IMG/VR virus record: IMGVR_UViG_2695420487_000019
Direction: 5' to 3' (one strand)
DNA length: 5,898 bases
Source of the DNA: a virus
Taxonomy: Duplodnaviria > Heunggongvirae > Uroviricota > Caudoviricetes
Made by a program: the position numbers and the translations under genes. Positions 1 through 5,898 of the stretch are shown piece by piece; position 1 is the first letter of the stretch, and each line of letters opens with the position of its first letter. The notes under the pieces are model-generated. The model was not told the origin of the DNA. It ran no database searches and saw only the letters and a list, made by a program, of their open reading frames with translations.

Positions 1-316
1 TATAATAAACTTACTTTTTTATCATTTTTCCACTTTAACAACATTTTGCTCCACTTTTCCACGACCAAACAACTTGAAATCTGGTTAAAATAACACGCAA
101 CACTATTCTTCTTCCTTGAGTCCGCCCGGAACTCGAAAAACAAACCGAGTTAAAGCCATTTTTCACAAAATCGATTTTGGGTCTCACCAAAGTTACGGGG
201 TTGCATACGCATTCGTTTATTTTCGAACGTGTACATACAAATATGCACAAAAATAATCAAAATTATTTTCTGAGATGCATTATGATATGAAAACCAATTT
301 CGTATAGAGTCTCACT

Positions 317-907
317 ATGTCTCGAATTTTTGCTTACTGTCGGATATCAACGCTGGATCAGACCACCGAAAATCAACGCCGGGAAATCGAAAGTGCAGGT
401 TTTAAAATCAAACCTCAGCAAATAATCGAAGAACACATTAGCGGCTCAGCAGCAACCAGTGAGCGTCCTGGTTTTAACCGGTTGCTTGCTCGCCTGAAAT
501 GTGGTGATCAATTGATTGTGACAAAACTGGATCGCCTTGGTTGTAATGCAATGGATATCAGGAAAACAGTGGAACAACTGACCGAAACAGGTATCAGAGT
601 GCATTGCTTAGCATTGGGGGGCATTGACCTGACCAGTCCAACAGGAAAAATGATGATGCACGTAATTTCAGCAGTCGCTGAATTTGAACGAGACCTTTTA
701 CTTGAACGCACTCATTCCGGGATAGTAAGAGCCCGCGGCGCAGGGAAACGTTTTGGTCGACCACCTGTGTTAAATGAAGAACAGAAACAGGTGGTATTCG
801 AACGAATTAAGTCAGGTGTAAGTATAAGTGCCATTGCCCGGGAATTCAAAACCTCGCGGCAAACCATTTTAAGAGCCAAAGCAAAACTTCAGACACCTGA
901 CATATAA
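317..907 (+). CDS. pinQ: Serine recombinase, DNA invertase of the Pin/Gin/Cin/Hin family (196 aa)
   Basis: Intact ORF, ATG at 317 and TAA at 905-907. N-terminus [15 protein letters not shown] has the resolvase/invertase catalytic motif (Y-x-R-I-S-T-x-x-Q, presumptive nucleophile Ser11). C-terminus [21 protein letters not shown] is a helix-turn-helix. The protein matches PinQ/PinR of the K-12 Qin/Rac prophages from memory. Symbol chosen from locus context (noh-cos, ynfO, ydfO, gnsB neighbours); pinR-type cannot be excluded without a search. Confidence 0.9.
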
Positions 908-1004
908 AAAATAATCTCGGTGTGAGATGCTTTACGTCTTCCAAGCCCCCTTCCTTGCCGTAAATGGAGAGATACATCTAATTATAGAATTTATATGTTT
1001 TACC

Positions 1005-1580
1005 CTACGGCAGTGCTGGCCATTCAATATCCGGTGCAGTTGATGTATCAACACGGTTCAGCAACACCCGATACTTTTTCCAGGCTTCCAGCAACAAGGT
1101 TTCTTCCTCCGTTGCGATCTCCAGATCCACAGCATCCTGAAGCGGCGCTATATGCTCACTGGCTATCTGCATCAGGCTGTTTTTTGTTTCTTCCGCCTCC
1201 CGGATCCGGAACAGTTTTTCTGCTTCCGTATCCTTCACCCAGGCTGTGCCGTTCCACTTCTGATATTCCCCTCCCGGCGATAACCAGGTAACATTTTCCG
1301 GTAACGGACCGAGTTCAGAAATAAATAACGCGTCGCCGGAAGCCACGTCATAAACCGTTTTACCCCGATGATCTTCAACGAGATGCCACGATGCCTCATC
1401 ACTGTTGAAAACAGCCACGAAGCCTGCCGGAATATCTGGCGGTGCAATATCGGTACTGTTTGCTGGCAGACCTGTATGAGGCGGAATATATGCGTCACCT
1501 TCACCAATAAATTCATTAGTTCCGGCCAGCAGATTATAAATTTTTATGGTCCGTGGTTGTTCACTCATTCTGAATGCCAT
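1005..1580 (-). CDS. tfaQ: Tail fibre assembly protein (Tfa, 191 aa)
   Basis: Intact minus-strand ORF beginning [24 protein letters not shown], the N-terminus I recall for lambdoid Tfa chaperones (TfaQ/TfaR/TfaE). Its start codon overlaps the stop of the upstream fibre-tip ORF in a TAATG arrangement at 1578-1582, indicating translational coupling. Convergent with pin. Confidence 0.85.
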
Positions 1581-1888
1581 TACGCAAGCCTCACAATATA
1601 GTTAAATGCGATGTTTTTGACGGTGTTTTCCGCGTTACCAGCAGCGTTAACGGTGATGGTATGTCCATGTGAACCAATCGCAACGGAGTGCGTATGAGCA
1701 CCAATACCGACAGTATGTGCGTGTGCACCTGCGCTTGCAGCAGTACCCGATACAGAGTGCGTATGAGCGCCTGCAGAAGAAGTGTTAACACTGTATTTAG
1801 AATAATCAGGTGATCCACTTCCCGGAGCACCACTGGAACCACCTGAAACAAATGTCATCGAATGGGTATGTGCACCGGCTGTCCCCAT
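1580..1888 (-). pseudogene. stfQ: Side tail fibre C-terminal tip fragment with repeated His-x-His motifs, joined out of frame to the upstream J-like fragment
   Basis: Translation carries five HxH units (GAHTHS three times, GAHAHT once, SHGHT once), as in the iron-coordinating distal tip of T4 gp37-type fibres. The frame is open upstream to 1984 but that stretch overlaps real J-frame coding sequence, so the Met at 1888 is not a natural start. The position between J and tfa matches lambda stf. The symbol follows locus context and is uncertain. Confidence 0.65.
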
Positions 1889-3135
1889 GCATTTACCGCC
1901 CGGACTGTCAGCCTGTAATTTCCCAGCGCCAGCTGCGTGAAGCGATATGTGGTTTCCGTCGTCCGGGCCGTGCTGACCAACCGCTCACTGCCGTCGTCCG
2001 CTGCCACGGTCAGGCGAAGCATAAAGCTCACCCCCTTCACCACCTTCGGCGTGTCCCAGCGCGCCAGCACCTGGTATTCCCCGCTGTCTGCGGTGACTTC
2101 TGCGGTCAGGTGCTGAACTGCTGGCGGCGTGACACCATTCACCGTGCCGCTCTGGTCACCGTCAAAGTGCGCCCCGTTATCCACGATGGCTTCTTTCTCC
2201 GGTACATGCTGCACGGCAGTGATGGCATACGTACCGTCATCGTTCTCACGGATACTCACACAGCGGAACAGGCGCTGACGCAGCGTCGGCAGCTTCAGCC
2301 CCCACACGCTGTACTCGGCAACGCCGTCAGGAACCCGGCTCACTTTCACCTTCACGCCGTCGGTGACGGACTGGACCTCCACGCTCACCGGATTACCCTG
2401 CCCGTCAACCAGGCTTATCAGCGTGGTGCCGGAGGATGGCAGCGTGATTTCACGGTCGAGCGTCAGTGTCCGCGTCTGGCTGTTCACCGCCAGCACGCGC
2501 CCGCCGATGCTGATCCCCGCATAGTCATCATCACAGATTTCAATGACATCACCTGGTACATGGCGAAGCCCTTCGGCACCCACGCTGAAGTCCACGGTCT
2601 GCGTTTCCAGCAGTTCCGTTTTAATCAGCCACAGCCCGGCTCGGTGCGCCTGCCCCCGCCTGGTACAGCCAAAGGCATCCATCTTCGTGACGTTACGACC
2701 GTAACGGGCAATGGCCTGCGTGTCCTCCACAAGCTCTGTCGCCGTCTCCCAGCCGTTATCCGGGTCAATCCAGTTCACCTCAACGGCATTATGGCGGTCC
2801 TTCAGGGCGCTGAAGCTGTAGCGGAACGGCGCGCCATCATCCGGCATCACCACATTACTGCGGTTATAGGTCCACACCTTATCTGATGGTCGGTCCTGCA
2901 CGAACGTCAGCGTCTGCCCGTTCCATACCGGCATACAGCGCATCGCCGAGCAGAAATCACTGAGAACATCCCACGCCTTACGCTGTGTGGTCAGCCAGGC
3001 ATTACAGGTGATGCGCGGCTCCGTGCCGCCAAAACCGTCCGGCACCGACTGGTCGCAACACTGGCCGATGACATACAGCGCCCATTTATCCACATCTGCC
3101 GCACCAAGACGTTTACCCATGCCGTAGCGCGGGTG
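1855..3135 (-). pseudogene. Internal fragment of a lambda J-like tail tip / host specificity gene (about 425 codons), missing its 5' end, with the 3' receptor-binding part replaced out of frame by the fibre tip
   Basis: The ORF 1855..3222 translation from about residue 30 (RYGMGKRLGAADVDKWALY...) to its end (...[23 protein letters not shown]) matches the central region and fibronectin-III-like repeats of lambda gpJ as I recall it. The first 29 codons of the listed ORF lie on Nu1 DNA in another frame and are spurious. Terminates 7 codons after AWGQ, at the junction with the fibre tip. Confidence 0.8.
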
Positions 3136-3370
3136 GCTGGAGATCTGTCTCGCTGGCCTGCCGCAGTTCTTCAACTTCCCGGCGCAGCTTTTCGTTCTCA
3201 ATTTCAGCATCCCTTTCGGCATACCATTTTATGACGGCGGCAGAATCATAAAGCACCTCATTACCCTTGCCACCGCCTCGCAGAACGGGCATTCCCTGTT
3301 CCTGCCAGTTCTGAATGGTACGGATACTCGCACCGAAAATGTCAGCCAGCTGCTTTTTGTTGACTTCCAT
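3113..3370 (-). pseudogene. nohA: 5' fragment of a lambda Nu1-type terminase small subunit gene (N-terminal winged-helix cosB-binding domain, about 78 codons, then 6 foreign codons and a stop)
   Basis: Translation MEVNKKQLADIFGASIRTIQNWQEQGMPVLRGGGKGNEVLYDSAAVIKWYAERDAEIENEKLRREVEELRQASETDLQP matches lambda gpNu1 residues 1 to about 78 almost exactly (from memory), then diverges to PALRHG-stop where the J fragment begins. It sits the same distance downstream of cosN as in lambda. Confidence 0.85.
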
Positions 3371-4554: not shown

Positions 4555-4586
4555 AATATAACAAAACCCCGTAAAAACGAGGTTTA
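4555..4586 (-). terminator. Candidate rho-independent terminator downstream of the gnsB-like gene
   Basis: On the minus strand, AAACCTCGT-TTTT-ACGGGGTTT forms a 9-bp stem with one mismatch and a 4-nt loop, followed by TTTTGTTATATTT. It lies 25-55 nt past the gnsB stop (4612-4614). Confidence 0.4.
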
Positions 4587-4611
4587 TGGATAAATTTTAT
4601 TATTGAATACA

Positions 4612-4770
4612 TCAGATTAAATTAATCTTGACATCATAGCTTTCAAGACCCGTCATTTTTTCCCGTGCGGTAAACTGAATACTGGTAACTTCTTTCCCGG
4701 TCTTTTTCTTAAGTTCAATAATTTTTTTTGTTATATATTCAGAAATATCTGCTTCTGCTTTTGTTTTTAA
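4612..4770 (-). pseudogene. gnsB: GnsA/GnsB-family small protein gene, 5'-truncated by IS5 at about codon 5; the remaining 52 codons are fused in frame to 30 codons read from the IS5 end
   Basis: The C-terminal 52 residues LKTKAEADISEYITKKIIELKKKTGKEVTSIQFTAREKMTGLESYDVKINLI align without gaps to residues 6-57 of the 57-aa GnsA/GnsB proteins as I recall them (...TGKEVSEIRFTAREKMTGLESYDVKIKIM). The listed ORF 4612..4860 continues upstream across the IS5 terminus, where the codons L-F-A-P-S are encoded by the IS5 inverted repeat. Confidence 0.75.

Positions 4771-5898
<1,128 letters not shown>

Follow-up and report, generated by a model that had tools for sequence, protein, structure and literature searches.

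The pinQ recombinase gene of cryptic prophage Qin: probably a stranded Tn3-family resolvase gene beside tail-fibre genes

Background

Gin of phage Mu, Cin of P1, PinE of prophage e14, and Hin of Salmonella are Fis-dependent DNA invertases, small serine recombinases with an HTH_7 domain whose 26-bp crossover sites have the form ...AAACC-NN-GGTTT.... Thousands of E. coli genomes and several phage records annotate the gene pinQ, together with pinR, as a DNA invertase. Here pinQ has been analyzed within a stretch of viral DNA of 5,898 nucleotides (IMG/VR record IMGVR_UViG_2695420487_000019), the whole of which is called the window. The homologous stretch of E. coli K-12 is annotated as cryptic prophage Qin, and the window is therefore the right arm of Qin. 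Like the invertase genes of Mu, P1, and e14, pinQ adjoins tail-fibre and tail-fibre assembly (tfa) genes, and it had been proposed (the original prediction) that it encodes an intact Pin-family invertase left beside a degenerate invertible segment. The observation behind that proposal was right and the explanation is a different one, so that the former is confirmed in part and the latter supported in part. Thus, pinQ is probably a stranded tnpR gene from a 3.8-kb, ISSba14-like transposon of the Tn3 family, not a Gin/Hin/Cin/Pin-type invertase gene, and probably performs no inversion in cis.

The Tn3 and gamma-delta transposons provide the other comparison. Like them, the relatives of PinQ have divergent tnpA (transposase) and tnpR (resolvase) genes with a res region of three subsites between, in which the crossover site is distal to tnpR and site III adjacent to it, and their half-sites are of the TGTCCGAAA type, which we take to match the left half of gamma-delta site I. 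The likeness is limited in that PinQ is only 32% identical to gamma-delta resolvase and in that site I is 26 bp (12-2-12) in the PinQ family, whereas gamma-delta site I is 28 bp.

More recently, K-12 PinQ, the product of the same gene, was concluded to be an active invertase in trans, acting at the pix repeats of the 1797-bp P segment of e14 and blocking T2 adsorption (Kirigo et al. 2025, Nucleic Acids Research, PMC12529663). In that report, an anti-phage mechanism is built on the invertase reading, and the transposon origin of the gene, the relics of res and of a terminal repeat, and the missing catalytic Arg are not noted. A stranded tnpR gene with a decayed site of its own and without this Arg changes which experiments are meaningful; moreover, a transposon-resolvase origin would explain, without special pleading, why there is no invertible segment beside pinQ.

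PinQ and its closest relatives

PinQ has 196 amino acids, with a Resolvase domain (E = 3.6e-36), in which Ser11 aligns with the nucleophile, and an HTH_7 domain. The N-terminal catalytic domain, the Ser nucleophile, and the C-terminal helix-turn-helix are those of the small serine recombinases, the invertases included, and solved Gin structures are the best PDB matches of the protein. By sequence, PinQ falls outside the Gin/Hin/Cin/Pin clade. It is 39% identical to PinE, 36% to Gin and to Cin, and 35% to Hin, whereas these four are 65-82% identical among themselves; gamma-delta resolvase is equally close to the same invertases (36-37%; for Hin and gamma-delta, the protein sequences were entered by hand). 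The earlier assignment to the Pin family is therefore not upheld.

A protein search recovered a large family 77-84% identical to PinQ, found on plasmids and chromosomes of Escherichia, Salmonella, Providencia, Morganella, Klebsiella, Hafnia, and Shewanella. Within it, PinQ is 84% identical to the TnpR of an E. coli plasmid transposon and 77-78% identical to the ISSba14-type TnpRs, all of equal length. Relatives on IncI, IncK, and IncFIB plasmids have no tail-fibre neighbours. Furthermore, the recognition helix of PinQ, (S/T)RQTILR, is that of the transposon TnpRs, the half-site of which is TGTCCGAAA as against the invertase-type TTCTCCCAAACC. Proteins 99.5% identical to PinQ are also encoded by the viable lambdoid phages 2H10, Tritos, mEp460_ev081, Turner, and HannyBb.

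The 77-78%-identical TnpRs are encoded 160 bp from a divergent gene for a 994-amino-acid protein with DUF4158 and DDE_Tnp_Tn3 domains, an arrangement that is the classic tnpA-res-tnpR. The ends of the element are defined by one Shewanella baltica genome, in which three identical 3.8-kb copies lie at different places, and GGGGTCCGCTTGGAAAACGGAAAATATCCCACGCTAAG is the 38-bp repeat found, inverted, at both ends. The transposase is named "Tn3-like element ISSba14 family transposase" by the NCBI PGAP pipeline, ISSba14 family being the sole curated element name obtained. Full-length copies of the E. coli plasmid version (83.6% nucleotide identity) occur in 65 records; in some cases one strain has them on its chromosome and on three plasmids, and the element is therefore mobile. 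When eight diverse members of the family are aligned (alignment A2), the res array has three subsites: site I of 26 bp, TGTCCGAAAnCG-NN-CGnTTTCGGACA; site II of 32 bp, TGTACGAAAG-N12-ATTTCGGAYA; and site III of about 20 bp, (T)GTACAcccaTTTCGTACA, adjoining the start codon.

Two further observations concern this family. IS4321 is an insertion sequence that targets the 38-bp ends of Tn21-type transposons. On an IncK2/Z plasmid (NZ_CP029742.1, L009, locus positions 5612-5690), it splits the terminal repeat downstream of tnpR, and its insertion there is an independent mark of that sequence as a transposon end. In Erwinia oleae (L023), the usual three res subsites are preceded upstream by a further palindrome of the site II type (TGTACGAAATGTAAAACACTAACTTTCGGACA, about 1890-1925), which may be an accessory site in duplicate or may belong to a second res.

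The 84%-identical plasmid homologues were at first read as plasmid multimer-resolution genes, a reading ruled out by the divergent transposase and the terminal repeats, which mark them as transposon TnpRs. Automatic annotation labels resolvase genes of resistance plasmids "pinR," for example in "...Tn5403-pinR-ecoRIIR" (PMC13253593, PMC6506616). The name Tn5403 was considered for the element and set aside; "Tn5403-pinR" are listed side by side in one paper, and an identity of Tn5403 with the element could not be confirmed. This spreading of a prophage gene name onto transposon resolvases is the mirror image of the mislabelling of pinQ. Thus, plasmid "pinR" labels often mark Tn3-family resolvases, and a "pin" beside tail fibres need not be a host-range switch.

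Remnants of a transposon around pinQ

In a BLAST comparison, window positions 237-952 align with the plasmid element at 82% identity, a span made up of the pinQ open reading frame, 80 bp upstream, and 45 bp downstream. Downstream, this homology stops at 952, the terminus of the transposon. The 38-bp pattern of the element end (GGGG...ACG.AAAA...TAAG) is present there as a relic with 8 substitutions and a 3-bp deletion (Table 1).

Upstream of the gene, the three subsites of res can be followed across 204-307, as homology only. Site I, which scores 30-37 with its own matrix in intact members of the family, scores 6.1 in phage 2H10 and 0.4 in the window, and in the window it is decayed past recognition as a site. 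Site II has lost the CG core from both half-sites. Site III is well kept; its right half-site (TATACGAAAT, 297-306, minus strand) scores 13.0, the second-highest value in the window, and site III and the pinQ promoter probably overlap. With the site I matrix, no second site I-like sequence was found in the window, the 17.9-kb Qin arm, or phage 2H10. Likewise, tblastn with TnpA gave no match in the window, in the Qin arm, or in the phages 2H10 and Tritos. A second prophage allele, P0009, at a synonymous divergence (dS) of 0.22 from pinQ, has the same Cys at the catalytic Arg position discussed below, the same res relic, and the same neighbouring tfa.

The comparison with the ISSba14 family, represented in Shewanella baltica and by the close variant on E. 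coli IncI, IncK, and IncFIB plasmids, therefore extends from the protein (identity, length, and recognition helix) to the colinear upstream res, the homologous 38-bp repeat downstream, and DNA homology that ends at the terminus. It differs in that pinQ is without tnpA, site I is unrecognizable, the CG cores of site II are gone, and Arg76 is replaced by Cys; in addition, the family element is a mobile 3.8-kb unit, whereas pinQ sits in the accessory region of a lambdoid prophage.

Two sequences in this region were considered and rejected. A hix-like half-site upstream of pinQ (TGAAAACC-AA, 288-298), which resembles the inner part of hixL, derives by mutation from the left half of res site III, which reads ATGTACACC in both 2H10 and the transposon. 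A 10-bp matrix applied to find res half-sites de novo is too short for the purpose, since its best match falls by chance in the IS5-type element at the end of the window, and only site III stands out.

From these findings, the following history may be proposed. An ISSba14-like transposon would have inserted beside the tail-fibre genes of an ancestral lambdoid phage and would then have lost its transposase gene, leaving behind tnpR, the decayed res, and one decayed terminal repeat. A second fibre/tfa set with flanking inverted sites would never have been present beside pinQ. A resolvase of this kind uses one res per DNA molecule, located upstream of its own gene, and this would be why no flanking pair of inverted sites exists. 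The recombinase is an "orphan," then, because it would be a stranded transposon resolvase and not because a tail-fibre switch has decayed.

Catalytic state and selection

That the gene is intact, as first stated, holds for its reading frame and its two domains; it does not hold for its active site. Codon 76 (542-544) of pinQ is TGT (Cys), a single CGT-to-TGT change, at the position of the catalytic Arg (R71 of Tn3 and gamma-delta, the second Arg in the DRLGR motif) of Gin, Cin, Hin, PinE, and gamma-delta resolvase. Y7, R9, S11, and R73 are kept, and the full Tn3 catalytic set (Y6, R8, S10, D36, R68, R71) is incomplete. DRLGC is found in the window, in K-12 PinQ (the gene of which differs from that of the window in 3 codons), in 2H10 and Tritos, and in each of the prophage copies examined; the 21 prophage alleles and P0009 all have this Cys, whereas 112 of 120 family representatives, including all transposon copies, have DRLGR. 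In Tn3 resolvase, the changes R71A and R71K leave no recombination and slow cleavage at least ~1000-fold (PMC2794168). By analogy, loss of the equivalent residue would be expected to cripple catalysis by PinQ.

The state of the gene was surveyed in 91 loci that carry this pin (80 IMG/VR contigs plus genomes and phages). It is open in 89 of these copies, the two frameshifted ones being L029 and L030. The ratio of nonsynonymous to synonymous substitution (dN/dS) is uninformative among near-identical prophage copies, which have 3-4 differing sites per pair; consequently, it was replaced by polymorphism counts over the 21 alleles and by comparison with the divergent allele P0009. There are 13 synonymous and 7 nonsynonymous polymorphic codons, where about 76% nonsynonymous would be expected (binomial P = 1e-4). 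True TnpRs compared with each other give a dN/dS of 0.08, and pinQ compared with the plasmid TnpR gives 0.15; among members of the prophage clade the value is 0.38. These values point to purifying selection on pinQ, though of a relaxed kind, and pinQ would then be a clean example of a transposon part kept under selection in temperate phages.

A separate polymorphism lies at codon 115 (659-661), which is CAC (His) in 33 copies, the window among them, and CAA (Gln) in 56. It aligns with the His of the FFFHV motif of the invertases, while the transposon TnpRs have Gln, and the position is presumably that of Hin H107, where activating mutations map.

Present role of PinQ

If pinQ is a stranded resolvase gene, PinQ should be unable to invert tfaQ-stf and is probably unable to resolve in cis, and efficient catalysis by the protein is unlikely. 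Its present role would most likely be sequence-specific DNA binding, namely repression of its own promoter through the surviving site II/III, and it might possibly also have effects in trans on other recombination systems. A more tentative proposal, which we consider rather unlikely, is that PinQ and PinR are exapted resolvases, kept as DNA-binding factors after the loss of the transposase, the crossover site, and the catalytic Arg. In this model, the shift of the P segment would be an inversion catalysed by PinE and biased or stimulated by PinQ, for example through binding at or near pix or through mixed complexes.

Several points weigh against pinQ being a stranded resolvase gene with little or no catalytic activity. 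K-12 PinQ also has Cys76, and its overproduction is reported to increase the inverted fraction of the e14 P segment from 30% to 88%, while deletion of pinQ lowers it (PMC12529663). If PinQ is an active invertase in trans, then Cys76 does not abolish catalysis, and the effect assigned above to the Arg-to-Cys change is carried over from Tn3 resolvase. Furthermore, continued purifying selection means that the PinQ protein does something. Finally, the res relic is visible only by colinear alignment, sites I and II not being findable de novo as motifs, and the left edge of the transposon remnant can be placed only roughly.

Given the results with K-12, it could be argued that PinQ is a fully active invertase in trans on the segments of other prophages, such as the e14 P segment, and that it is kept as an anti-phage switch. 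The overproduction result supports this; in addition, the same report describes sensitization to T2 by pinQ deletion and induction of pinQ and pinR by T2 (PMC12529663). The reading frame is under purifying selection, and one pix half-site (CTCTCGAAAACC) has CGAAAAC in common with the family half-site. However, besides the lost Arg and a recognition helix of the transposon TnpR type, in a pinE mutant the P segment is locked although pinQ and pinR are present, and neither a catalytic-site mutant nor an in vitro assay was found in the parts of the report examined (PMC12529663). Near-identical pin genes also occur in viable phages whose hosts need not carry e14. Moreover, in E. coli NZ_CP144928.1, the sole genome that matches the whole window, iraM directly follows icd (2638767-2640443, L128), so that e14 is absent at its usual icd site and the published trans target of PinQ is not at the usual site there. 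Action in trans, which the original prediction had also allowed for, has thus been published for K-12 PinQ, but direct catalysis of P-segment inversion by PinQ is doubtful because of Cys76, the dependence on pinE, and the absence of e14 at icd in the best-matching genome. A fully active trans invertase is, in our judgment, an improbable explanation.

It might be supposed instead that pinQ has no function and is a relic that mutation has yet to disrupt. The loss of tnpA, of site I, and of one catalytic residue would fit such a view, as would the relaxed constraint and the two frameshifted copies. The open frame of nearly all copies and the synonymous bias speak against it, as do the presence of Cys76 in both of two alleles at the dS given above and the deletion phenotypes reported for K-12 (PMC12529663), and we regard this as quite improbable.

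Still another possibility is that PinQ is a working resolvase that acts in cis on the upstream res, for example in resolving dimers of a phage or prophage. The region upstream is colinear with res and correctly placed, site III is well kept, and the gene is intact in viable phages. Set against this are the state of site I even in 2H10, the loss of both site II cores, the replacement of the catalytic Arg, and a dN/dS about five-fold above that of true TnpRs, which together make a working cis resolvase very unlikely.

The search for an invertible segment

The Gin/Cin/PinE/Hin systems differ from pinQ in their 26-bp sites, a second fibre/tfa set, and inversion isoforms. Crossover sites were sought with a half-site matrix, scored as 12-2-12, that was built from gix (Mu), cix (P1), and pix (e14) in annotated records and from hix entered by hand. 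As positive controls, e14 and Mu each yielded precisely their two known sites (30.8 and 27.3 for e14, 29.5 twice for Mu), the next best scoring at most 11.3. No gix/hix/cix/pix-type 26-bp site was found in the window or the Qin arm, where the best score is 10.2, or in the whole 46-kb phage 2H10, where it is 11.7; the maxima of shuffled windows are 8.3 +/- 2.6. No two inverted sites therefore flank the segment next to pinQ, in agreement with the earlier statement that no crossover pair could be recognized. A simple pattern for Fis sites missed the annotated P1 enhancer, its positive control, and hence says nothing on pinQ. Over the 72 bp homologous to that enhancer, pinQ has 54-56% DNA identity to cin, gin, and pinE, which are 76-79% identical to one another.

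The top matrix match in the window is a gix-like 27-mer at 4567-4593 (CCCCGTAAAAACGAGGTTTATGGATAA, compared with Mu gix TTCCTGTAAACCGAGGTTTTGGATAA), which was rejected, having an extra base in each half and a score no higher than shuffled sequence can give. Since it can fold into an imperfect hairpin and lies between ydfO and the gnsB-like gene, which are convergent, it is probably a terminator. A similar sequence at position 45943 of phage 2H10 is the third-best matrix match there.

The one hint of remnant sites had been a weak inverted 10-mer on either side of tfaQ and the stf tip (Table 1). It is present, with a 9/10 match that can be extended to 15 nucleotides at 80%, and it is one (I20) of 75 inverted pairs detected over 3.4 kb; when the two 100-bp regions were shuffled, 36 of 400 trials (9%) gave a 9/10 match between them, so that it is at chance level. 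The left arm lies 7 bp outside the transposon end. The DNA of the right arm is about 5 kb further off in intact phages, where lom and a 3.3-kb stf gene lie between J and pin.

As had been noted, there is only one stf tip and one tfa beside pinQ; thus, alternative fibre C-termini and two opposed tfa genes are lacking, and no second orientation was found in nature. However, the same layout is found in viable phages. Reading on from J, the genes of 2H10 and Tritos are (lom,) stf, tfa, the convergent pin, a ydfK-like gene, and int, with a single fibre gene set and no second tfa. A single stf-tfa pair beside a convergent pin is thus the normal layout, not a decayed one. Across the 91 loci, tfaQ comes next in 63, in the orientation of the window in 63 of 63, and a different fibre module in 28; an inverted arrangement was seen in none (0/91). 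The junction predicted for inversion of the 950-1900 segment at the 10-mers, used as a synthetic query, was matched over its full length in none of 5426 complete E. coli genomes, the best matches covering one half only. In K-12, the published work likewise found no inversions in Qin or Rac (PMC12529663).

A Pin-type invertase whose tail-fibre segment has degenerated, with remnant sites at the two 10-mers, would fit the tail-fibre neighbours, the reality of the 9/10 match, and the fact that cix of P1 lies at the 3' end of cin and at the junction of the constant and variable fibre parts, roughly where the 10-mers lie, but is hardly credible given that the right arm belongs to J and owes its nearness solely to a microhomology deletion, that the match is at chance level, that no invertase site was found by a matrix with working positive controls, that intact phages share the single-tfa layout with no inverted isoform, and that PinQ is outside the invertase clade and bounded by transposon relics.

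Deletions and layout of the locus

The features of the locus are collected in Table 1.

Table 1. Coordinates and strands of pinQ, the transposon relics, and neighbouring features in the window.
Feature	Position	Strand	Remarks
res site I relic, 26-bp 12-2-12 crossover site	204..229	+	CATACGCATTCG-TT-TATTTTCGAACG; colinear with site I of eight family members (alignment A2)
res site II relic, 32 bp	244..275	+	TGCACAAAAATAATCAAAATTATTTTCTGAGA; 26/32 consensus positions (own count, alignment A2)
res site III relic adjoining start codon	287..307	+	ATGAAAACCAATTTCGTATAG; homologous to ATGTACACCCATTTCGTACAG of the transposon
pinQ	317..907	+	open reading frame open, 196 amino acids; small serine recombinase; probably derived from a Tn3-family tnpR
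Relic of 38-bp terminal inverted repeat (element right end)	916..950	-	reverse complement GGGG---GCTTGGAAGACGTAAAGCATCTCACACCGAG vs GGGGTCCGCTTGGAAAACGGAAAATATCCCACGCTAAG; 27/38 positions
Left arm of inverted 10-mer	957..966	+	GCCGTAAATG; phage DNA between transposon end and tfaQ stop; chance match
tfaQ, tail-fibre assembly protein	1005..1580	-	Caudo_TAP domain; convergent with pinQ
stf tip (3' end of side tail-fibre gene)	1580..1881	-	Phage_fiber repeat; deletion removed the upstream part
Internal fragment of lambda-type tail tip gene J	1875..3136	-	94% identity to J of 2H10 and Tritos; Phage-tail_3 and Ig_J domains
stf/J deletion junction	1878..1881	.	4-bp microhomology GCTG; three-way comparison of window, parental stf (L110), and parental J (2H10)
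Right arm of inverted 10-mer	1889..1898	-	inside J-derived coding sequence
Nu1/nohA 5' fragment (terminase small subunit)	3134..3370	-	joined to J via 3-bp microhomology TGG

It had also been suggested that Pin mediated the nearby deletion. Up to 1881, the stf tip shows 100% identity to full-length stf loci, and homology to J sets in at 1875. Neither the stf/J nor the J/Nu1 junction has an invertase-type or res-type site by matrix search. With 4-bp and 3-bp microhomology and no recombinase site, the two deletions are therefore ordinary illegitimate events and not Pin products, which disposes of this suggestion.

Within 1875-3370, the window has a 1.26-kb internal J fragment between the stf tip and the Nu1 fragment. 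The Qin of K-12 (L005) is another deletion variant, with a longer stfQ fused to nohA and without the J fragment; the lineage of the window and that of K-12 have therefore undergone different, independent deletions in the same Qin arm.

Over its whole 5898 bases, the window is matched by E. coli NZ_CP144928.1 (100% of length, 99.9% identity), in which the gene order is ydfK, pinQ, tfaQ, the tail-fibre fragment, the J fragment, the terminase small-subunit fragment, ynfO, ydfO, a gnsB-like gene, and an IS5-type element. This last element (ISKpn26 family by annotation) occupies 4771-5898, inside the gnsB-like gene, and begins with GGAAGGTGCGAATAAG at 4771, which is presumably the IS5-type terminal repeat. 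In most other genomes, the match to the window ends at 4771, and the insertion is common to only two genomes of the collection. An open reading frame annotated as "GnsA/GnsB family" (4612-4794) runs into the element.

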